A DNA stretch of 64,000 nucleotides, from assembly GCA_964559225.1 (NCBI GenBank), contig CAZLGA010000005.1, forward strand, positions 185-64,184, written 5' to 3'. The notes beneath the pieces were generated by a model. The model saw only the letters and a list, made by a program, of their open reading frames with translations. It did not search any database and was not told where the DNA came from. Positions 21,098 to 63,966 of the stretch are shown here, in pieces. Numbering within the stretch: position 1 is the first letter of the stretch; every line of letters starts with the position of its first letter. The DNA comes from an uncultured bacterium (lineage in GTDB: Bacteria > Hydrothermota > Tepidihabitantia > SM23-42 > JAOAFX01). Position numbers and translations under genes: made by a program.

Positions 21098-21133
21098 CTT
21101 TATTATAGAGTCAGACTCTTGAAAGGAGGTATT

Positions 21134-23485
21134 ATGAAGTGGTTGACTCTTATACTTTTCCTCTCTATGGTCTTCGGGGTTGATATCCACACCCCGTCTC
21201 CAGTTCAGCCTTATACCCCGCTACCCGACGAAAATCCCACGATTATCTCATTCTCAAATGGAATCGTCTTTGATACACGCTCGGGTGAACCCGAACTGCC
21301 TGCAAATCTGCGGATTGATTCATACCGTGGTTCTGGTTACTATCTAATCCAGATAGATGGTCCGGTCTATTCCCATTATCTTGAACAGATAAAGGAACTT
21401 GGTATTGATGTTGTGGGTTATATTCCCAAATATGCGCTGATATCATACGCAACCCCAGAGCAAATTGCCCTTGTGAATCTGAAGCCATTTGTGCGCTGGA
21501 CCGGAATCTTCCAGCCTGCATATAAACTTCAGAAGGAAGTAATGGAAGGAACAGGAATAGCACGTGTTACAATTCAATTATTCCCGGATGAAAATACCAA
21601 TTCTATTGCCGGTATAATCCAATCCTTCGGCTTTGATGTAGTTGAAGTCATTGACCATAAACTATGCAAGACGATTGATGCAGTTGTTGATTTGAGCAGG
21701 ATTGATGAAATCGCAAGAATAACAGGCGTGCATTGGATACAATTGTGGACTGAACCAACATTATGCAATGATAATTGCCAGTGGGTTACACAGACCGGCT
21801 GGCGCTCGAGTGTTCCACCTGACCCGGGTGCAAGAAGGATATGGTATGCAGGAATAAGGGGGGCTGGAACAATCTTAAGCACAACCGACTCAGGAATATA
21901 TATGTCCCACCAGCAATATAATGACCCTGCCAATCCCATCACTGCCCCGGGTGTATTTCCGAATCATAGAAAGGTAGTAGCCTATAAATTATATTCAGGT
22001 GCAGCATTCGGCGATGTCTCTGCGGTCTCTTGGCATGGCACCCATGTGAATTGCACGGTTGCAGGAAATGATACAACATTTGGAACGAGTGCCATGGATG
22101 GAATGGCAAAGGAAGGAAAGATTTACTTTGTTGATATTGCTAATGCAAGTGGTGGACTCGTCGTACCAACGAATCTCGCTCCAATGTATGATACTATCTT
22201 CCTGGGCCGTGGACTCGGATATAATATCTTACAGCATTCGGGCAGTTGGGGATGGACTAACTCCAGTGGCACATATCTAACTCAAGATGCCTCAACCGAT
22301 GCCTATATCTACGCCTATGCTAATTTCTTAAATCTCTATGCCGCAGGAAATGAATTCAGTGCACGAACGATTCGTAATCCTGGAATCGCCAAAAATGTCC
22401 TGACCGTTGGCGCGCTCCAGAATGGCACTTCATCCAATGCTATTGCCTCATTCTCAAGCAGAGGTTATACACAAGATAGAAGAATAAAACCGAATGTGAT
22501 GGCACCGGGTCAAAATATTTATTCTGCCCAGGGTGGGACAACGAGTTCATACTTTCCATTGTCGGGAACGAGCATGGCAACACCAGCAACAAATGGTTCA
22601 ATCGGACTGATTCGTCAGTATCTACTGGCAGGATACTATCCCTCAGGTGCAGCAAAGCCTGCAGATTCAATAAAATACCAGAGCGCAGCATTATTGAGGG
22701 CAATGATAATAGTCTCCTGCGACCCCAATATTACCGGCTTCACTGTCCCTGACTCTAATATTGGCTGGGGCAGGATTGATGTGGATAGTGTGCTCTATTT
22801 TACGGGTGATACGAGAGGCTTAATCATTAAAGATGATACAATTGGCGTTGGAACCGGACAGTCAAAGACCGATTCTTTCGCTGTAACCAGCTCAACAATA
22901 CCACTCCGCGTTGCTGTTGCCTGGACCGATACCGCAGCGGCAGCAAATGCCAATCCCACACTCGTAAACGATTTAAACGTCACCCTGACTGCACCCAATG
23001 GAACATATTATCGTGGAAATCAGTATTCAGGTGGACAGTCCATTGCCAATCCCACAACCTGGGATAACAGGAATGTTGAGGAATGTTTCAGGGTAAATAA
23101 CCCTGTTACCGGAGTCTGGAGACTGACCATTGGAGGACAGAATGTACCAAATGCACCGATGGGATTTGCCTATGCCATTACAGGTGGCATCGGTGTTGTC
23201 GGAATAGAAGAAAGGACAAGCAAGACTGCGGTTAAAGAAGACTTCAGCTGCAATACCATCACAAATAGATTGTTGAATGTGAAATTCACAATCAATGCCC
23301 AGAAATTGGTAACGATTCAGGTCTATGACCTAACAGGCAGAATGGTTGAGCAAATTCTGAATCAAAAATTCAATCCCGGCGAACATCATATCAAACACCG
23401 GCTCAATCTACCAAATGGTGTCTATTTTGTAGAACTAAAAACCGATAATTCTAAACAATTGAGCAAGGTTGTGACGATTCACTAA
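21134..23485 (+). CDS. subtilisin-like serine peptidase (S8) with T9SS C-terminal sorting domain
   Basis: Signal peptide MKWLTLILFLSMVFG. The catalytic motifs HGTHV and GTSMATP are present. The C-terminal ~80 aa match the T9SS Por tail (VYDLTGRMV...GVYFVELKT). Confidence 0.85.
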   Translation: MKWLTLILFLSMVFGVDIHTPSPVQPYTPLPDENPTIISFSNGIVFDTRSGEPELPANLRIDSYRGSGYYLIQIDGPVYSHYLEQIKELGIDVVGYIPKYALISYATPEQIALVNLKPFVRWTGIFQPAYKLQKEVMEGTGIARVTIQLFPDENTNSIAGIIQSFGFDVVEVIDHKLCKTIDAVVDLSRIDEIARITGVHWIQLWTEPTLCNDNCQWVTQTGWRSSVPPDPGARRIWYAGIRGAGTILSTTDSGIYMSHQQYNDPANPITAPGVFPNHRKVVAYKLYSGAAFGDVSAVSWHGTHVNCTVAGNDTTFGTSAMDGMAKEGKIYFVDIANASGGLVVPTNLAPMYDTIFLGRGLGYNILQHSGSWGWTNSSGTYLTQDASTDAYIYAYANFLNLYAAGNEFSARTIRNPGIAKNVLTVGALQNGTSSNAIASFSSRGYTQDRRIKPNVMAPGQNIYSAQGGTTSSYFPLSGTSMATPATNGSIGLIRQYLLAGYYPSGAAKPADSIKYQSAALLRAMIIVSCDPNITGFTVPDSNIGWGRIDVDSVLYFTGDTRGLIIKDDTIGVGTGQSKTDSFAVTSSTIPLRVAVAWTDTAAAANANPTLVNDLNVTLTAPNGTYYRGNQYSGGQSIANPTTWDNRNVEECFRVNNPVTGVWRLTIGGQNVPNAPMGFAYAITGGIGVVGIEERTSKTAVKEDFSCNTITNRLLNVKFTINAQKLVTIQVYDLTGRMVEQILNQKFNPGEHHIKHRLNLPNGVYFVELKTDNSKQLSKVVTIH

Positions 23486-46540: not shown

Positions 46541-46649
46541 AACACCAAATTCCCAAATCACTTTTTCACCCAACATCAAAAACCGTATCTCGTTATGCAA
46601 TTTCGGTTGACATTTAGGCATTTTGTCTTTTTTTTTTTTTACATTGTAT

Positions 46650-46677
46650 TGACAAACCTTAAATGTTGAATATAATA
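46650..46677 (+). promoter_or_regulatory. promoter TTGACA-16-TATAAT upstream of tRNA-Met, preceded by a T14 tract
   Basis: TTGACA 46650-46655 and TATAAT 46672-46677. Confidence 0.55.
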
Positions 46678-46709
46678 TTCGTGGTTAATAAAACGGTGAA
46701 ATTAAGGGG

Positions 46710-46783
46710 GCCCGTAGCTCAGGTGGTTAGAGCAGCTGACTCATAATCAGCGGGTCGTGGGTTCAAGTCCTACCGGGCCCATT
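46710..46783 (+). tRNA. tRNA-Met (anticodon CAT; elongator Met or Ile2/lysidine type)
   Basis: GGGCCCGTAGCTCAGGTGGTTAGAGCA-GCTGA-CTCATAA-TCAGC-GGGTC-GTGGGTTCAAGTCCTAC-CGGGCCCA cloverleaf. Confidence 0.85.
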
Positions 46784-46788
46784 TTTAA

Positions 46789-47190
46789 TTGATAATGAAA
46801 TGGAAAATACATCCAGCAAAAGAAAATATGACAAAGACAGTCCTGAGTGCCTTATTTATAGTTGTTTTTATCATCTTCATTGCCTTTTCCTATAATCCAT
46901 ACTGGGCATTGCTCGGTCTAATCTTTCTCGTTGCTTCGCTACATTCTTATTATTTCCCCACGACATATGAGTTCACTGAAGAAGAAATAATCATAAAGAC
47001 AATCTTCTCCACCCATAAAAGAAAACTCAAGGAATTCAAAAAGATTTATATAGGAAAAAATGGCGTCCTTTTAAGTCCTTTTAGGTATAAAACATTTTTA
47101 AATAATTTTCGTGGGGTATTCCTTTTATTGCCCAAGGAACGCGATGAAATAATAGATTTTATCAAAAACAAACTTAATGAAGAGAATTGA
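46789..47190 (+). CDS. hypothetical membrane protein (two TM helices, bPH/YdbT-like C-terminal region)
   Basis: Hydrophobic segments at residues ~17-60 and a charged C-terminal half. Confidence 0.35.
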   Translation: MIMKWKIHPAKENMTKTVLSALFIVVFIIFIAFSYNPYWALLGLIFLVASLHSYYFPTTYEFTEEEIIIKTIFSTHKRKLKEFKKIYIGKNGVLLSPFRYKTFLNNFRGVFLLLPKERDEIIDFIKNKLNEEN

Positions 47191-48673
47191 CGATATTTTG
47201 CCCCAGAAATATGCAAATGATTTCAATATTCCTGTGGAGCTTGCCTGTATAATCAGCAAAAGATTTCCTGATTATGACGAAGCAAGAAGATTTTTGTTCC
47301 CAAAAATAGAACAGTTAAACAATCCCTTAGAATTACCCGATATAGAAAAGGCAATTGAAATATTAATAGAGGGGATAAAAAATAATGAAGATATTCTTAT
47401 CTATGCCCACGATGACCCGGATGGATATACATCTGCAACAATCTTATATCAAACACTTGTAGACATAAGACGCAAAGGAAAACCTGAGATATTTATATAT
47501 CCCATCAATCGTGAAAAAGATGGGTATGTTTTAAATCCGCTTGTGCTAAAAGAATATGTTGGCAAAGGTGTGAAAATTCTTGTTAGTGTAGATTTTGGCA
47601 TAAGCAATCCCCAAAATTTTGAAATCGCCCGGGAAATGGGACTGAAATTAATAATATGTGACCACCACGAAACTGAAATGAATGAATTTCCGGTGCCTGC
47701 CGTGGACCCGAAGCGGAAAGATTCAAAATATCCATTCCGTGAACTCGCGGGTGTTGGTGTTACCCTTAAATTGTGTCAGGCGATTTATAAGACTGCATTT
47801 GGGATCAATGACAGTAATTTTTTCAAACTGAAAAAAGAATTCATTGCCATAGCAATGATTGGAACGCTTGCGGACAGGGTGCTACCTCTTGATGAGAATC
47901 GTATTCTTTGTTATGAGGGTATAAAGACATTGAGGGAAATAGAAAAACCCTGGGCACGGTATTTTTTGATTGATAATACAATTACCATCCCCCAGATTTT
48001 TAATACAATAATCCCATTATTACAATCCGCAGCACTGGAAGATTCACGCCTGGGCGTTGGTTTTTTTATTGCCCCTGACTTTTCAAAAATCGTTGAAAAA
48101 CTAAAATCAATAGAAAATGCACGAAAAGAAAACATTGAATATTTATTCCAGATTGCTTTAAATGTTGCGAAAGTTTATCCAAATGTAGTGATATCTATAA
48201 TCCCTTACGAAATTATAAATGAAACACAAAAAACAAAGATAAATAACCTTGGTGCTGTGGTTTCAAAATTGCGGGACTATTTCCATAAGACTGCAGTGGC
48301 AATGATAACAAAAGAAGAGAAATGTTATGCAGAATTAAGGTCTCACGATATCAATCTTTTTGAATTCCTTAATAAATCAAAGGAGCTCTTTATTGATTTT
48401 GGTGGCCACAAACGGGCCGCAGGCTTTTCTATGTTAGAAAAAAATCTTGATAAATTTATTGATTATGCTACAAAAATTCTGCCTGAACCCGAAATAGAAA
48501 AAAGAAAAAAGATAGAACCTGAGGCAAATATTGATAAATCAAAAATTAAACTCCTTGAACCCTTATTACCATTTGGGGAAGGGAACCCCTCCCCACTATT
48601 GACTGATGGCATTGATTTATATACAATAGATAACAGGATGAATATTATTGAGCTCGGGTTATGTCAAACTTAA
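47177..48673 (+). CDS. RecJ-like DHH/DHHA1 family phosphoesterase
   Basis: RecJ-type N-terminus (PVELACIISKRF...LNNPLELPDIEKAIEIL), DHH motifs IYAHDDPDGYTSA, VDFGIS and ICDHH, and DHHA1 GGHKRAAGF. No OB-fold tail. 498 aa. Confidence 0.7.
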   Translation: MKRIDDILPQKYANDFNIPVELACIISKRFPDYDEARRFLFPKIEQLNNPLELPDIEKAIEILIEGIKNNEDILIYAHDDPDGYTSATILYQTLVDIRRKGKPEIFIYPINREKDGYVLNPLVLKEYVGKGVKILVSVDFGISNPQNFEIAREMGLKLIICDHHETEMNEFPVPAVDPKRKDSKYPFRELAGVGVTLKLCQAIYKTAFGINDSNFFKLKKEFIAIAMIGTLADRVLPLDENRILCYEGIKTLREIEKPWARYFLIDNTITIPQIFNTIIPLLQSAALEDSRLGVGFFIAPDFSKIVEKLKSIENARKENIEYLFQIALNVAKVYPNVVISIIPYEIINETQKTKINNLGAVVSKLRDYFHKTAVAMITKEEKCYAELRSHDINLFEFLNKSKELFIDFGGHKRAAGFSMLEKNLDKFIDYATKILPEPEIEKRKKIEPEANIDKSKIKLLEPLLPFGEGNPSPLLTDGIDLYTIDNRMNIIELGLCQT

Positions 48674-49257
48674 ACTATAACTTAAAAGAGTTGAATTTGA
48701 AAATAGTCTATTACGGGACTGGTTTATGCGGTAAGACAACAAATCTTCGTTCAATATACGCAGCATTCCCCCAGGAAAGAAAAGGGAAAATGATGAGCCT
48801 TGCCACCGAGCTTGACCAAACGCTGTTCTTTGACCTCTTGCCCCTTGATATGGGCAGTGTAAAGGGATGGAAAATCAGATTTCATTTATTTACTGTACCT
48901 GGGCAGGTATATTATAATGTTTCAAGGAAACTCGTCTTAAGAGGTGTTGATGGGCTTGTTTTTGTTGTTGATTCCCAGGAAGAAAGATTGGAAGAGAATA
49001 TTGAAAGTTTCAATAACCTTAAAGATAATTTACAATCTTATGGCTTGGAGTTAAAGGATATCCCTATGGTAATTCAGTACAACAAAAGGGACCTACCCAA
49101 CATAATGCCCATTGGTGACCTTCAGATGTATATCAATAGAGATGGTTATACCTATTTTGAAGCGGTCGCCCTGAGGGGCATTGGTGTGTTTGATACCCTG
49201 AAATCAATCTGTCAAAAGACGATTCTAAAACAGATTGATAATATCCCGAAAGTATAG
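48661..49257 (+). CDS. mglA: MglA-like Ras-superfamily small GTPase
   Basis: N-terminus MS.LNY...L..KIVYYGTGLCGKTTNL closely resembles MglA. The TVPGQ switch II and NKRD motifs are present. The ATG overlaps the upstream gene by 13 nt. Confidence 0.7.
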   Translation: MSNLNYNLKELNLKIVYYGTGLCGKTTNLRSIYAAFPQERKGKMMSLATELDQTLFFDLLPLDMGSVKGWKIRFHLFTVPGQVYYNVSRKLVLRGVDGLVFVVDSQEERLEENIESFNNLKDNLQSYGLELKDIPMVIQYNKRDLPNIMPIGDLQMYINRDGYTYFEAVALRGIGVFDTLKSICQKTILKQIDNIPKV

Positions 49258-58565: not shown

Positions 58566-59588
58566 TTATCTATCGAGTCTCCTATCCCTACGAAAATCCA
58601 ATCTTATACCTGAGTCCGGTTCAATTACACTACTCTCGCTTGGGAAAAAGTCCATATGCACAACGACATTTTCATAGACCAGTGCCGAACCCTTTCCAGA
58701 ATCAGCATTTATCGTCAATAAATCGCCTAAACCCGGTGTGCCCACGGAAACAAATTTTGCATCATCGATCAAATCAATGAATTGTCTTACCTGTTCTTCT
58801 GTCACGCCACTCTTTTTGCCACCAATCGCATCCATTGCATAGGATTTTATCAACTTCTTCCAGAGCCGATTTAACAGACTGTTACTGGCAAAAAGATCAA
58901 AACAGATAATCTTGTCGCCTGTGGTAACAACAACACCGATTGTTGATTTCGATAATTTAGGGATATTTCCGAATTTTTTAGTATATTCGTCAACCGTTTG
59001 CTGGGCATCTTTATCTTCGTAATTTGCCCGGACCGTCCCTGTTCCTGTAGAAATACCAAGTTTATCCTGTGTCCGCGCAACTTCTGCCCAGACCTCGGTC
59101 TGGCTTTCGCTCAATTTTGCCCTATGCCTCACTGTATTCGGAACAACCAGACCGCTGCTCTTAAACTCCTTTGACACCTCAACCCACCTACCGTGTTCTA
59201 CACAAAAAACCTCTACCTTTATCCATCCACTGTTTGCTGGCAACAAAACATCTGCTTTTATCATTCTGTCCTGCTTTGCACCAGTAATCATTTCACCCGT
59301 TAGAATAAATATCGGTTCATCACCATTATTCTTTATCTCCACCTGATTTACATTTCCTGAGCCAACTTCCCTTATCTTGAGCCATCCTTTATCCATTGCC
59401 TCATCAAGGGTTAGAAAATCCTTGGTACTAATATTCATTACCATCTCCAGCGGGTAAATTTTGAGATTTTTATATTCAACAGGAACGCCAATTTTTAACC
59501 GCTCCATATAATTTTTTACAACCTGTTCTGGTCTCTTTGCAAAAAGCATCATCATTGAAACAATAAGGATTAAAATTCCTTTTTTCAT
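58566..59588 (-). CDS. hypothetical secreted protein (signal peptide, no recognised domain)
   Basis: N-terminal MKKGILILIVSMMMLFA, 340 aa. Confidence 0.4.
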   Translation of the reverse strand: MKKGILILIVSMMMLFAKRPEQVVKNYMERLKIGVPVEYKNLKIYPLEMVMNISTKDFLTLDEAMDKGWLKIREVGSGNVNQVEIKNNGDEPIFILTGEMITGAKQDRMIKADVLLPANSGWIKVEVFCVEHGRWVEVSKEFKSSGLVVPNTVRHRAKLSESQTEVWAEVARTQDKLGISTGTGTVRANYEDKDAQQTVDEYTKKFGNIPKLSKSTIGVVVTTGDKIICFDLFASNSLLNRLWKKLIKSYAMDAIGGKKSGVTEEQVRQFIDLIDDAKFVSVGTPGLGDLLTINADSGKGSALVYENVVVHMDFFPSESSVIEPDSGIRLDFRRDRRLDR

Positions 59589-59815: not shown

Positions 59816-62620
59816 ATGAAAATTCGCCTGGCCTTTGTATTTATCATTATAAACCTACTTTATGCCCAATATGTAACCCCGAAGCAGGGCTGGTTCAATT
59901 TTACAACACCCTTTCCTGATACGATCAATAACCTAACACATATTGGCAAATTCATACTCCAACCGCCTGCAGGAATCCATGGACGGGTGATTGTTCAATC
60001 TGATGGACATCTATATTTTGCTAATGGACACAGGGCAAGATTCTTTGGGACTAATTTCTGCTTCTCTGCGACCTATCCATCACAGAGTATGAGCCAGAAT
60101 GTAGCACCACATATTGCAAAACAGGGGTTCAATATGGTTCGTTTCCACCATATTGATGGTGCGCTGACAAATGCTCCGGGTTCAAATACAACAAGAAGAT
60201 TAAATCATGAAGTTCTGAATAAATTTGACTATCTGTTCTATCAACTGAAACAAAGAGGTATATATTCTGCAATCGACCTCTATAGCATAAGATATTTCAA
60301 ATCCGGGGATGGCATACCTTATTATGATAGTGTAAATCGCTCAATGGATGTAGTAAAAAGGGTGTATATGTTTTATGAACCTGCTTATGCCCTATTTCGC
60401 GATTATCCTGATAGCCTGCTCAATCATATCAATCCATATACCGGTATAGATTACAAGAACGACCCTGCATTAGTATTTATAACTCCGATGAACGAAGGGA
60501 CTTTAATTGACCATTATTTCTGGGATAACTGGGATAATACCCAATCCAGTTATTACTTACCAAGATTCTACAAAAATGAACTTAAGAACCAGTGGAATGA
60601 CTGGCTTTATAACAAATACCACTGGGATTCCACACTGATTCGGGTCTGGTCTGGTGGTGACACAACCACCGGTCCGAATAAGATAATTAATGGTGAATTT
60701 TCGGATACCCTGAATGGTGTTCCAAGATACTGGTGGCGCAATCAATTCAGCGGCAATTCAGCCTGGGGTGTACAGAATGCGGGATTGAGCATTGAACCCG
60801 CGGTCTTTGTCCATGTCTATTCACCCGGACAGTATTCCTGGCATATCCAATTATTACAATCAGGTTTTACAATCAATCAAGACTCCACCTATCGCCTTAG
60901 TTTCAAGGCAAAATCAAGCAGGAATCGAAGTATGGACATTGTCATACAAAGAAACAGAACACCCTGGACTGTCTATTATTCTCATTCAGTCAATCTTACA
61001 ACCTCAGGGCAGAGCTTTATATTACCATTTTATGCTGGAACCACGGACACGGTCCAGTTGACATTCAATCTCGGACTTGATACCGGTAGGATATGGATTG
61101 ATGATGTCCAGTTGAGAAGGACTCCATTTTCAAATGTCCTGGACCCTGGGGAGAGCCTTGCAACAAGGACGATAAAACTTGTGCGCTGGAGTAATCGCTA
61201 TGATTATTCTCCATACCGTTATTTTGACCAGATTAGATTCTTTTATGAAAAAGAAACAAAGTTCTATCAAAGGATTTCTGCTCTGTTAAATGATACACTC
61301 CATTGCCAGTCGCTTATTACTTCTTCATATTTCTGGGCAAACCAACTCCATCAGTACGCCTGGGCAAATCTGGTGCCGGTGATGGACGCCCATCCATATT
61401 TTGATCATCCTAATTTTCCCAATCAACCCTGGGATACCCTCGATTTCAGGATAACGAATGCGTATTTTGGAGAAGGAAGTAATGGTGAATGGTTTTTTAC
61501 CTATATGAACCAATGCGCTGCGTCACAGAAGCCGATGATTATAACCGAATGGCAGCATCCTGCACCCTGTGAATCACGATATGTCACAATTTTACCATTT
61601 GCCAGTTATGCCCGCTTAAGAGACTATGATGCAATCATAAACTTTGCCTTTGCCCATTCTGAAGGTGGTTTCTCAAATAACCGGATACGACCATTTTTTG
61701 ATGCCGCAGGACAACCAATACACTTTGCTTTTTTAAGAATGGCGGCACTTGCCTTTTTAAGGGATTTACAACCCGAAGATTTGGAGCGCACACCCTGGAC
61801 GAGCTTTAATCTTGACCAGATAATCCGTGACATTTATAGTGGGAATTACTGGAATCGGGCAATACCGAGTTCACCCCGTGACCGTGTATTCAATCAATTT
61901 AACTGGAATTCACAGAAAGGAATATTCATAATTAATAATTCAGGAACAAAGACATTCTCGGGTAAGACGGCCGGTGATACAGTGATCTTAGGTGGGATAA
62001 AAATAATCGGCAATACCGATGGCATAATTGCATTTACAAAGATAGATAGCACCCCAATACAGAAGACTTTTCTTGTTGCATCCCTTGCCCGTACCGAAAA
62101 TACAAATATGGTTTGGGTTGAACAGACCAAAACCCAGGGAATGTCGAACTGGGGAACTTCACCCTGTCAGATAGAGAGCGTTTCTTATTTTACCCAGTGG
62201 CACGCGGACTCATTACTTGTCAGTAAATTGAATCCATCAGGAAATATAATAAGTTCAATCAAAATAATCGGTTCAAATCATACAACGAACTGGCTTATCA
62301 GAACCGGTATTGATTCTGTCTTCTGGTATTGTGTCATCGCCTATGGTTATTCTGATACGCTCGTAGGAATTCTTGATACGAAAGCAATTGATAATAAAAC
62401 AATATGGACTCCAACTATTCAGAAAGAATTAACATTTAAAGACCTTCCTGAGAATACAGAGATTAAATTGTATGCATTGGATGGACGACTAATATACCAT
62501 CAGAAGTCTGTTCAAACCCCAAACGGTTTGGTTATTAAAAATCTCCCCAGCGCGGTATACTTCTACTTCCTTAAAAACAAAAACTTTGAGCAGAAAGGAA
62601 AGATTATTATTATTGATTAG
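59816..62620 (+). CDS. secreted clan GH-A (GH5-like TIM-barrel) glycoside hydrolase with beta-sandwich domains and T9SS C-terminal sorting domain
   Basis: Signal peptide. The GH-A acid/base region is PMNEG and the nucleophile region is ITEW. The C-terminus KLYALDGRLIYHQ...AVYFYFLK matches the Por tail. Confidence 0.6.
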   Translation: MKIRLAFVFIIINLLYAQYVTPKQGWFNFTTPFPDTINNLTHIGKFILQPPAGIHGRVIVQSDGHLYFANGHRARFFGTNFCFSATYPSQSMSQNVAPHIAKQGFNMVRFHHIDGALTNAPGSNTTRRLNHEVLNKFDYLFYQLKQRGIYSAIDLYSIRYFKSGDGIPYYDSVNRSMDVVKRVYMFYEPAYALFRDYPDSLLNHINPYTGIDYKNDPALVFITPMNEGTLIDHYFWDNWDNTQSSYYLPRFYKNELKNQWNDWLYNKYHWDSTLIRVWSGGDTTTGPNKIINGEFSDTLNGVPRYWWRNQFSGNSAWGVQNAGLSIEPAVFVHVYSPGQYSWHIQLLQSGFTINQDSTYRLSFKAKSSRNRSMDIVIQRNRTPWTVYYSHSVNLTTSGQSFILPFYAGTTDTVQLTFNLGLDTGRIWIDDVQLRRTPFSNVLDPGESLATRTIKLVRWSNRYDYSPYRYFDQIRFFYEKETKFYQRISALLNDTLHCQSLITSSYFWANQLHQYAWANLVPVMDAHPYFDHPNFPNQPWDTLDFRITNAYFGEGSNGEWFFTYMNQCAASQKPMIITEWQHPAPCESRYVTILPFASYARLRDYDAIINFAFAHSEGGFSNNRIRPFFDAAGQPIHFAFLRMAALAFLRDLQPEDLERTPWTSFNLDQIIRDIYSGNYWNRAIPSSPRDRVFNQFNWNSQKGIFIINNSGTKTFSGKTAGDTVILGGIKIIGNTDGIIAFTKIDSTPIQKTFLVASLARTENTNMVWVEQTKTQGMSNWGTSPCQIESVSYFTQWHADSLLVSKLNPSGNIISSIKIIGSNHTTNWLIRTGIDSVFWYCVIAYGYSDTLVGILDTKAIDNKTIWTPTIQKELTFKDLPENTEIKLYALDGRLIYHQKSVQTPNGLVIKNLPSAVYFYFLKNKNFEQKGKIIIID

Positions 62621-63966
62621 CGAATCAAAATTACCCTGCGAACTATCGTTATATCATCTTTTGTAAAGCCAACAAAATATACACCTGCAGGCAAAGAATT
62701 ACCTGCGTCATCGGTTCCATCCCATATCACATTTTTATTATCAATAGTCAAATGCCGAACAACCTGTCCAAGAGGATTGTATACTTTTATCTTCTGTATA
62801 TTTTTATTTTGATTTTGAATTACAAACCGGCTTCCTATTGAAGGTGAAAGTAAAATATTATCATCTGCGATTTCCTTCTGTTCCTTGACTCCCACAATAT
62901 GAATCGGGACCGCAAGCTTGGCTAATACTGCAACCCCGGTCTTTATCACCTGGGTGGCAAATGGCAGATGGTTCACACCACAGTTAGTATAGAGATGCGG
63001 ACCAACTGTATCCCCTGTAGTATGATATGCTGGTGTCAATGAGCGCTCAATCCCGAGCATCGCCTTATATCCCCTTCTCCAAAAACTCGCATGGTCAGAA
63101 GCACCACTGGTCCCGGTATTTCGGACCATTCTTATCTTCAACTGGGTATAGGTATCTGCAACTGCCTTGAAAAATTGAGTTACAAATACACTGCAGTTCG
63201 GCACTGCTGTCGTATAGTGGGCATTCATCGTATCGCGGTTAGGATTTGACGGTGTCACATAGCCAATCATATCAAAATTCAGCACCCCAAGGATTGTATC
63301 TCCATTACGATAAGCACGGGCCGCAAAAGAATCACTTCCTATCAATCCCTGTTCTTCAGCATTAAATGCTACAAAATAGATCGTATGCTCAAACATAAAA
63401 TTCCTCATTACCCTTGCTGCTTCTAATACTGCTGCAGTACCCGAAGCATTATCATCAGCACCTGGAGCATAACCACTGCTTGGCACATCATCCAGATGCC
63501 CACCAATCAAGCAGTATTTTTTGAGACTTGGATATACTTTACCTCGTTCTATTCCAACTACATTTGGACCATAAGTATTTGAAAAACTTTGAAAATAAAC
63601 GGAGTCGCAACCATATGCCAGAAGTCTATTTCTTATATAATTAACTGCCACTACCCTGTTCGAATCGTGGGTTGCATAACGTGTGTACATTCTCTGTAGA
63701 CGCAGGATTGAAGCCTGAATACTATCCTGTGAAACTGCGGCTACCATCTTCTGGATGAGCGTATCTGGGGCGAATGACCTAATCTGCTGTGGATAAAGCT
63801 CTTCATCCACAAACCTGACCGGGTCAAAAGTCAGCCTTTTCAGTTCAACCTTTAATTTGTTTAATTCAAAGATATTATCTTCAGTGGTACGGAGTAATAA
63901 ACAATCTTCATACTGGTCAATAATATCCCCATATTGTGCCACCACAGAAGGGTCTACGGACCCCAA
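62617..63966 (-). CDS. M28 family aminopeptidase with T9SS C-terminal sorting domain
   Basis: M28 zinc ligands in HLDD...ADDNASG and FNAEEQGLIGS. The C-terminus VYNPLGQVV...GVYFVGF matches the Por tail. The 5' end may extend beyond the window. Confidence 0.75.
   Translation of the reverse strand: MGSVDPSVVAQYGDIIDQYEDCLLLRTTEDNIFELNKLKVELKRLTFDPVRFVDEELYPQQIRSFAPDTLIQKMVAAVSQDSIQASILRLQRMYTRYATHDSNRVVAVNYIRNRLLAYGCDSVYFQSFSNTYGPNVVGIERGKVYPSLKKYCLIGGHLDDVPSSGYAPGADDNASGTAAVLEAARVMRNFMFEHTIYFVAFNAEEQGLIGSDSFAARAYRNGDTILGVLNFDMIGYVTPSNPNRDTMNAHYTTAVPNCSVFVTQFFKAVADTYTQLKIRMVRNTGTSGASDHASFWRRGYKAMLGIERSLTPAYHTTGDTVGPHLYTNCGVNHLPFATQVIKTGVAVLAKLAVPIHIVGVKEQKEIADDNILLSPSIGSRFVIQNQNKNIQKIKVYNPLGQVVRHLTIDNKNVIWDGTDDAGNSLPAGVYFVGFTKDDITIVRRVILIR

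Follow-up and report, generated by a model that had tools for sequence, protein, structure and literature searches.

Within a 64-kb stretch of bacterial DNA (contig CAZLGA010000005.1, positions 185 to 64,184; the whole of it is called the window here), the gene for an MglA-type small GTPase closes a block of three genes, the other two of which encode a small membrane protein with a predicted PH-like fold and a DHH/DHHA1 phosphoesterase that corresponds to the nuclease core of RecJ. Comparative analysis indicated that the three genes form the invariant core of a WOR-3-specific operon (Stahlbacteria and TA06 being counted with that phylum), and that arginine 53 of MglA, its arginine finger, is replaced by glutamine across the clade. 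This replacement is the most unusual sequence feature of the system and is new here. From the gene linkage we infer a functional RecJ-MglA link, and we see an even chance that the three products belong to one pathway, in which the PH-like anchor and MglA would recruit or gate a membrane-proximal 5′ nuclease. The block is laid out as follows (nt, nucleotides; aa, amino acids; ORF, open reading frame).

46789..47190, + strand: small membrane protein, 133 aa from a TTG start, 131 aa from the ATG at 46795
47177..48673, + strand: RecJ-core DHH/DHHA1 phosphoesterase, 498 aa
48661..49257, + strand: MglA-type small GTPase, 198 aa
48661..48673, + strand: 13-nt overlap of the end of the DHH gene (stop codon) with the start of mglA, ATGTCAAACTTAA

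The ORFs were found where the original prediction had placed them, between 46789 and 49257, together with the 13-nt overlap between the DHH gene and mglA. The small ORF overlaps the DHH ORF by 14 nt, and the mglA reading frame differs from the DHH frame in the window. The packing of the genes, with frames that overlap or abut, fits the translational coupling that had been claimed for them. A programmed frameshift fusing DHH to MglA was considered and rejected, because other loci have 0 to +3 nt between the two genes and in-frame stops.

Two samples were used to follow the block. A scan with the window MglA, with one genome per GTDB species, yielded 80 loci, 21 of which came from WOR-3, Stahlbacteria and TA06 genomes at 70-94% MglA identity and 59 from other phyla; below the former set, the next-best match, at 61% identity, is from other phyla. 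The 21 loci, together with the window and three complete WOR-3 genomes, made up a clade set of 25 loci. The second, independent sample was a DHH-centred scan of metagenome contigs, comprising 19 clade loci at ≥44% identity and 61 ordinary RecJ loci.

All 25 clade loci found via MglA had the order small gene, DHH gene, mglA; the first two genes are spaced by −23 to +28 nt, and mglA follows DHH at −14 to +3 nt. The small gene also precedes the DHH gene in 19/19 clade loci of the DHH-centred sample, in which an mglA encoding Gln53 directly follows DHH in 15 of the 16 loci with a complete 3′ end. The sole exception is locus L100 (699-2030 and downstream), with a truncated DHH gene (443 aa), downstream of which mglA is missing and the opposite strand carries large ORFs rich in Cys and Pro; either a genuine rearrangement or a chimeric assembly could account for it. 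Neither the DHH gene nor the small gene adjoined mglA in any of the 59 loci from other phyla, one of which has an unrelated RecJ (26% identity) 3 kb off on the other strand. Likewise, no MglA or small gene was nearby in any of the 61 ordinary RecJ loci (27-36% identity, mostly 558-848 aa). The flanks vary, with at least 12 upstream and at least 5 downstream contexts among the clade loci, and since the adjacency is kept across the whole clade while these flanks vary, it goes far beyond chance. Furthermore, the link between mglA and mglB, a known functional pair, is broken in 14 of the 25 clade loci; the three-gene block thus shows a tighter association than MglA has with its known partner. Thus, the DHH-mglA pair proved to be conserved in every relative found via MglA, as the original prediction required for the pairing to be significant. 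Database homologues of the small, DHH and MglA proteins are all named candidate division WOR-3. In the literature, we found no paper linking MglA with RecJ or DHH proteins, and two WOR-3 genome or isolate papers (including PMC12285271) mention neither MglA nor RecJ.

A tRNA gene and a promoter-like sequence precede the block.

46649..46676, + strand: sigma-70-like promoter, TTGACA-16 nt-TATAAT, 12 of 12 consensus matches, of inferred function, upstream of the tRNA gene and the operon
46708..46781, + strand: tRNA gene with a CAU anticodon (tRNA-Met according to ARAGORN), ending 14 nt before the ATG of the small ORF

The tRNA is not initiator-like (G1:C72 pair, anticodon stem GCTGA/TCAGC), and it could be an elongator tRNA-Met or tRNA-Ile2. 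Because the same tRNA(CAU) lies upstream of the three genes in 11 of the 13 WOR-3 loci scanned, it belongs to the conserved block and is probably the source of its promoter.

Glutamine at the arginine-finger position of MglA

The identification of the 198-aa GTPase as an MglA, made originally from its motifs, was confirmed by an end-to-end match in the PDB: phmmer aligned residues 1-189 with the MglA proteins of Myxococcus xanthus and Thermus thermophilus at E values of 6e-70 to 1e-69, and the next-best matches after MglA proteins were Arf proteins at 2e-07. Residues 14-29 read KIVYYGTGLCGKTTNL, and both TVPGQ and NKRD are present. The motifs of the GTPase are located as follows.

48715-48738, + strand: P-loop GTGLCGKT, sequence motif
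48817-48819, + strand: codon CAA for Gln53, at the arginine-finger position, with Thr54 next
48892-48906, + strand: TVPGQ, residues 78-82 (G3, with Thr78 in place of Asp and the catalytic Gln82), sequence motif
49081-49092, + strand: NKRD, residues 141-144 (G4, NKxD), sequence motif

Residue 53 is glutamine in 25/25 clade MglAs, in the context E/DLDQT, and arginine in all 59 MglA loci from other phyla. It is also arginine in 150/150 representatives from a library of 1.84 billion proteins, taken as the best MglA representatives at 50%-identity clustering, all of which also carry TVPGQ. At this clustering level, the WOR-3 MglAs are swallowed under R53-bearing representatives, so the library sample shows that R53 is general and cannot count Q53 lineages. 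Most of these representatives (P0361-P0510) are 300-800 aa long, and P0361 holds a duplicated MglA segment; the long ones look like run-on or fused gene calls rather than true multidomain MglAs. Gln53 partitions perfectly with the operon, in that 25 loci have both and 59 have neither. Further changes specific to the clade MglAs include P20T/A, Q30R, F70W and A103V.

R53 is the intrinsic arginine finger of MglA and has been termed absolutely conserved by Miertzschke et al. (PMC3199381). Its replacement by alanine lowers both intrinsic and MglB-stimulated GTP hydrolysis about as much as G21V does (PMC3199381; PMC4316618). The arginine, which stands beside the G2 threonine, is reported to be conserved in all members of Group 1 MglA and serves as a membership feature of that group (Wuichet and Sogaard-Andersen 2014); the window protein has Gln53 instead. 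Judged by overall sequence and the G3 motif, the WOR-3 MglA is thus Group-1-like, yet it lacks one defining feature of the group.

In one WOR-3 sub-lineage, two hydrolysis-linked residues are changed, since its MglA carries G21S (motif GTSLGGKT, as in Bdellovibrio) in addition to Q53. The genes concerned are the following.

L003, 7522-8118: mglA with G21S and Q53
L004, 7492-8088: mglA with G21S and Q53
L025, 10001-10597: mglA with G21S and Q53
L097, 5492-6088: mglA with G21S and Q53

Location of mglB in the clade

The original prediction had described an MglA paralogue with no MglB partner and no roadblock-domain ORF within several kb. The latter observation holds for the whole 64-kb window: tblastn found no Roadblock/MglB ORF there, and the best match of an MglB hidden Markov model to six-frame ORFs of at least 40 aa had an E value of 0.064 and 8 bits. 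The former is not supported, because mglB lies 74-164 nt after mglA in 11 of the 25 clade loci, encoding a product of 135-136 aa. In the MglA family at large, mglB is located within four genes of mglA for 390 of 449 members (Wuichet and Sogaard-Andersen 2014), an arrangement that is absent from the window and present in these 11 loci. The WOR-3 MglBs are genuine homologues of MglB, with 26-35% identity over about 120 residues to that of M. xanthus (tblastn E values of 1e-10 to 1e-14), and several of their close homologues bear the JGI name Roadblock/LC7/MglB.

Look-ups with the exact sequences of the window MglA and DHH proteins matched no record, and for the window lineage the question was addressed via the closest relatives with identical local synteny. 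In assemblies GCA_039802005.1 and GCA_965649275.1, one contig carries groEL-groES, the small gene, DHH, mglA and ribBA-ribH-nusB, which is the arrangement of the window, with 84% identity to it for DHH and 96% for the mglA product. In both assemblies, mglB is located on another contig. A search for MglB elsewhere in the genome, which had been proposed as a check, thus found the gene in the genomes of close relatives and none in the 64 kb of the window. A profile search with the WOR-3 MglBs matched P0352 (locus tag ABIL69_06370), and the small protein P0123 (ABIL69_01555) is encoded in the same assembly.

The relocated mglB is the first gene of a module that continues with the genes for a double DnaA-type AAA+ protein (608-632 aa) and a PATAN(DUF4388)-TPR protein (528 aa), followed by those for CheR, CheD and CheB. 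The same mglB, double-AAA+, PATAN-TPR and Che module directly follows mglA in the complete genome CP070664.1, which means that an ancestral supercluster was split between mglA and mglB in the window lineage. Since the MglB loci hold no second mglA beside the relocated mglB, a window-type MglA is the likely partner of the relocated MglB. Throughout WOR-3, mglB is always followed by the genes for the 608-632-aa double DnaA-type AAA+ protein and the 528-aa PATAN-TPR protein, and usually next by those for CheR, CheD and CheB; the double DnaA-like ATPase is an uncharacterised conserved neighbour of MglB. Examples of the module are listed below.

L002, 8679-12158: mglB-neighbour module
L088-L090, 8405-11890: mglB-neighbour module
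L091 and L092, 8405-11856: mglB-neighbour module

The sub-lineage with G21S also keeps MglB elsewhere. In the metagenome-assembled genome OEV79, the operon is located on a 207-kb contig and MglB (L091) on a 72-kb contig. We had considered that this sub-lineage might have lost MglB in the manner of Bdellovibrio; this was rejected, as OEV79 has both the G21S+Q53 MglA and the MglB module. In comparison with M. xanthus MglB, the WOR-3 MglBs carry no new conserved arginine.

The RecJ core, the PH-like protein and other genes of the window

The 498-aa protein matches Pfam DHH at 60.6 bits and DHHA1 at 39.1 bits. Its match to the NCBIfam model recJ (TIGR00644) reaches 253.7 bits, below the cut-off of 396.9, and covers model positions 8-470 of 546, so that the OB-fold part of the model is unmatched. 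The catalytic motifs listed here are invariant in the 25 clade members and in 42 database homologues.

47408-47425, + strand: catalytic motif HDDPDG
47588-47605, + strand: catalytic motif VDFGIS
47657-47671, + strand: catalytic motif CDHHE
48401-48424, + strand: catalytic motif GGHKRAAG (DHHA1 GGH)
48569-48589, + strand: PFGEGNP, after which only 27 residues remain, a two-strand OB-fold remnant

The PDB alignment pairs the window protein with residues 44-464 of Deinococcus radiodurans RecJ, up to PFGEGNP. Canonical RecJ loci encode 66-105 or about 290-340 residues beyond this motif, versus 27 in the window protein. The AlphaFold2 model, at a mean predicted local distance difference test score (pLDDT) of 92.3, shows only two short strands after the core. 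The best structural matches of this model are bacterial RecJ proteins, with query-normalised TM scores of 0.71-0.77 (5F55, 0.75; 8Y30, 0.77); archaeal RecJ/GAN/Cdc45, NrnA and PggH match less well, and the JGI and UniRef names for the family are RecJ. The OB-fold domain of D. radiodurans RecJ extends over residues 425-532 and provides the DNA-stacking Tyr496 and Trp517, the C-terminal domain binds the tail of SSB, the protein that binds single-stranded DNA, and the isolated core lacking the OB fold has much reduced activity and processivity (PMC4846377). These data bear out the description of a RecJ-like DHH/DHHA1 protein without an OB-fold C-terminus: most of the OB fold is gone except for the two-strand remnant, and there is no C-terminal domain. 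The predicted fold and the catalytic residues are compatible with 5′-3′ exonuclease activity on single-stranded DNA (ssDNA).

The AlphaFold2 model of the small protein (pLDDT 90) consists of a transmembrane hairpin at about residues 14-62, a beta-sandwich predicted to be cytoplasmic, and a C-terminal helix. Its best Foldseek matches are PH, PTB and GRAM domains with probabilities of 0.9-1.0, but with E values of 0.01 or weaker and TM scores of about 0.4. In topology, the model fits a PH-type seven-strand sandwich with a C-terminal helix as its cap, placed behind a transmembrane hairpin, and it is compatible with the two-transmembrane PH-like protein that had been predicted ahead of the DHH gene, the structural matches being weak by E value. 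No Pfam family matched the protein at threshold; a sub-threshold match to bPH_4 occurs in one homologue only, and one family member carries the UniRef label 'PH domain-containing protein'. The motif GKNGVLLSPF...FLNNFRG is conserved, and the family, with about 126 database members, shares the invariant motif NG.LLSPF...L..FRG. In other phyla, the homologues (31-42% identity) are encoded among unrelated genes, with neither DHH nor MglA adjacent, and for this reason we dropped the idea of a small protein invariably linked to DHH or MglA. A distant homologue on a Planctomycetes-labelled contig (L086, 5147-8541) is encoded between the genes for a ParA/CbiA-type ATPase and a PF13941 (MutL, actin-like ATPase) protein, a setting unlike that in WOR-3. 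We also rejected the 133-aa ORF as a disguised MglB, since it has no Robl_LC7 match and a PH-like model, and WOR-3 MglB is a different family of about 135 aa.

Elsewhere in the window, C-terminal sorting domains of the type IX secretion system (T9SS) were found on three secreted proteins, namely, a subtilase (21119-23485, + strand; 32.7 bits, above the Pfam cut-off of 27), a CBM_4_9 protein (59816-62620, + strand) and an M28 peptidase (62617-63966, − strand), the last two scoring 21.6 bits each, below the cut-off. If these matches are real, the organism would use T9SS. A 340-aa protein encoded at 58566-59588 (− strand) matches the ARPP-1 domain at 253.6 bits; ARPP-1, the ARG and Rhodanese-Phosphatase-superfamily-associated protein, is a little-studied family.

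Interpretation and comparison with known systems

How, then, could the three products work together? In the reading to which we assign an even chance, MglA would still be the nucleotide switch of the MglB/PATAN-TPR/Che polarity pathway, probably serving type IV pili. The genes beside mglB, for PATAN-TPR and CheR/CheD/CheB, suggest a conventional function of the switch in polarity or chemosensing, and the only WOR-3 isolate in culture is a thin rod with pili (PMC12285271). Judging from the published R53A data, loss of R53 would slow GTP hydrolysis or make it dependent on a factor in trans, so that the GTP-bound state would be long-lived. The PH-like anchor and RecJ core, made together with MglA from tightly packed and mostly overlapping genes, would act in the same pathway. 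There, the RecJ core may be a membrane-tethered, 5′-phosphate-dependent nuclease for ssDNA or oligonucleotides from which the OB fold that holds DNA and the domain that binds SSB have been lost, and the pair of MglA-GTP and PH-like adaptor may recruit or gate it.

Several considerations weigh against this proposal. Conserved gene order and overlapping stop and start codons are also found between functionally unrelated genes in compact genomes. Operon formation, R53Q and OB-fold loss may each go back to one event in the ancestry of a single phylum, and the partition of 25 versus 59 loci is for that reason one phylogenetic observation rather than 25. The 498-aa gene may simply be the housekeeping recJ if WOR-3 genomes have no second full-length RecJ. 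Moreover, members of the small-protein family occur by themselves in other phyla, and the clade locus L100 has a truncated DHH gene with no mglA downstream. Finally, Q53 need not mean a dead GTPase, since MglA groups 2-5 also lack the arginine and at least one of their members hydrolyses GTP (PMC4316618).

Alternatively, the genes may only have been inherited together, with the 498-aa protein serving as the phylum's housekeeping 5′-3′ exonuclease of repair and recombination, a RecJ with a reduced C-terminus. The sharing of a strong tRNA promoter would then be historical, R53Q an unrelated lineage-specific substitution, and no physical or regulatory link would exist. We regard this as a serious alternative, albeit one with the chances somewhat against it. 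RecJ is the best family match of the protein by sequence and fold as well as in the JGI and UniRef names, the block is preceded by a tRNA gene with a perfect consensus promoter, other conserved strings of mixed function such as ribBA-ribH-nusB occur in the window, the small-protein family lives elsewhere without DHH or MglA, and all three traits could stem from one ancestor. What argues for a functional link instead is that the block has outlived repeated reshuffling of both flanks and the split between mglA and mglB, and that overlapping or abutting frames were kept in 25/25 loci. In addition, the RecJ core has lost exactly the parts with which an ordinary RecJ grips DNA and contacts SSB, which suggests dependence on other partners, and it is suggestive that three clade-specific changes coincide in neighbouring genes.

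A direct interaction is a more specific proposal and, in our judgement, an unlikely one. The arginine-less MglA would form a complex with the RecJ core and the PH-like anchor, the state of the GTPase positioning or gating the 5′ exonuclease at the membrane or pole, for example on DNA taken up via type IV pili, or else a partner would supply the finger in trans. Taken by itself, the version in which the RecJ core, the PH-like protein or another operon-linked factor gives MglA(Q53) its catalytic arginine, as a new GTPase-activating protein (GAP) or co-GAP with hydrolysis occurring only on meeting the partner, appears improbable. It would fit the perfect co-occurrence of Q53 with the operon and the fact that most GAPs of eukaryotic small GTPases give their arginine in trans (PMC3199381). 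Retention of MglB by the G21S+Q53 sub-lineage suggests that the cycle is probably not simply abolished, and the WOR-3 MglBs offer no new conserved arginine relative to M. xanthus MglB. Nevertheless, the invariant arginines of the DHH protein align with canonical RecJ motifs (for example, NREKDGY, ADRV...ENR and ELRS in the PDB alignments) and look like nuclease residues rather than a new finger, and natural hydrolysis-impaired MglA variants are already known (Bdellovibrio S21). The proposal made at the outset, an MglA independent of MglB with a speculative role in second-messenger turnover or nucleic-acid processing rather than motility, is largely contradicted, its MglB-less part being contradicted for close relatives, and we hold it to be very improbable. 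The 64 kb without MglB would be in keeping with it, and DHH/DHHA1 enzymes do include hydrolases of c-di-AMP, pGpG and pAp, though these are weaker structural matches than RecJ. However, mglB stands directly after mglA in 11 of the 25 clade loci and elsewhere in genomes that share the synteny of the window, no second MglA is encoded beside those mglB genes, and the enzyme belongs with RecJ rather than with NrnA, GdpP or PggH.

MglA is the reference bacterial Ras-like polarity switch, and the hallmark of its mechanism is an intrinsic arginine finger that has been called absolutely conserved. A phylum that has replaced R53 yet kept MglB is thus a natural experiment on the role of MglB when it is not a classical GAP and on the rewiring of the GTPase cycle. 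A fixed operon with a stripped RecJ core suggests that an output of MglA signalling has gone unrecognised, or at least that this signalling has a co-regulated partner, and it offers a concrete candidate for the way in which a minimal RecJ finds its target. If a complex or a finger in trans were true, it would be the first link of a bacterial polarity GTPase to a DNA-end-processing enzyme, and possibly a new GAP or effector of MglA. If the link is inheritance of gene order only, the data still correct the orphan-MglA reading and document a natural lineage of R53Q MglA. Since a cultured WOR-3 isolate exists (PMC12285271), these ideas are testable there if its genome has the operon.

The nuclease can be compared with the bacterial RecJ proteins of known structure (D. 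radiodurans, 5F54-5F56; T. thermophilus, 2ZXO and 1IR6; Staphylococcus aureus, 8Y30). The window DHH protein corresponds to the experimentally defined RecJ nuclease core and shares with these enzymes DHH motifs I-IV, the DHHA1 GGH motif, the N-terminal helical region, the long linker helix and PFGEGNP. Unlike them, it retains two of the five OB-barrel strands, ends by position before Tyr496 and Trp517 of D. radiodurans RecJ, has no C-terminal SSB-binding domain, scores below the NCBIfam cut-off and is fixed in an operon with mglA. Similarly, the small protein resembles bPH proteins in its predicted N-terminal transmembrane hairpin followed by a small sandwich of putative PH type and a C-terminal helix, but it differs from them in matching no Pfam family at threshold, in its own invariant motif and in being tied to a RecJ core and MglA, which it is only in WOR-3.

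For the switch itself, the MglA-MglB system of M. xanthus and T. thermophilus (Group 1; PDB 3T12, 5YMX and 6H17) shares with the window MglA the P-loop, Thr54, TVPGQ with Gln82, and NKRD. The window protein is 54% identical to M. xanthus MglA and 52-61% identical to the MglAs of other phyla, and the operon's MglA is of the M. xanthus/T. thermophilus type at about 55-60% identity. As in that system, a Roadblock-type MglB of about 135 aa adjoins mglA in many WOR-3 relatives, and PATAN-TPR and Che genes are nearby in WOR-3, as noted for some Group 1 systems. In contrast, the WOR-3 MglA has Gln53 for R53 and Thr or Ala for Pro20, the RecJ-core and PH-like genes always precede mglA, and the WOR-3 MglB lacks the C-terminal tail of roughly 26 residues of M. 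xanthus MglB. The closest precedent is the MglA of Bdellovibrio bacteriovorus, which has a natural Ser21 and whose mglB has been lost (PMC3983030). It likewise carries a natural change at a residue needed for GAP-stimulated hydrolysis, and its G21S is shared with L003, L004, L025 and L097; no RecJ-type partner has been described for it. Bdellovibrio keeps R53 and has lost mglB, whereas WOR-3 has lost R53 and keeps mglB, even in the sub-lineage with G21S.

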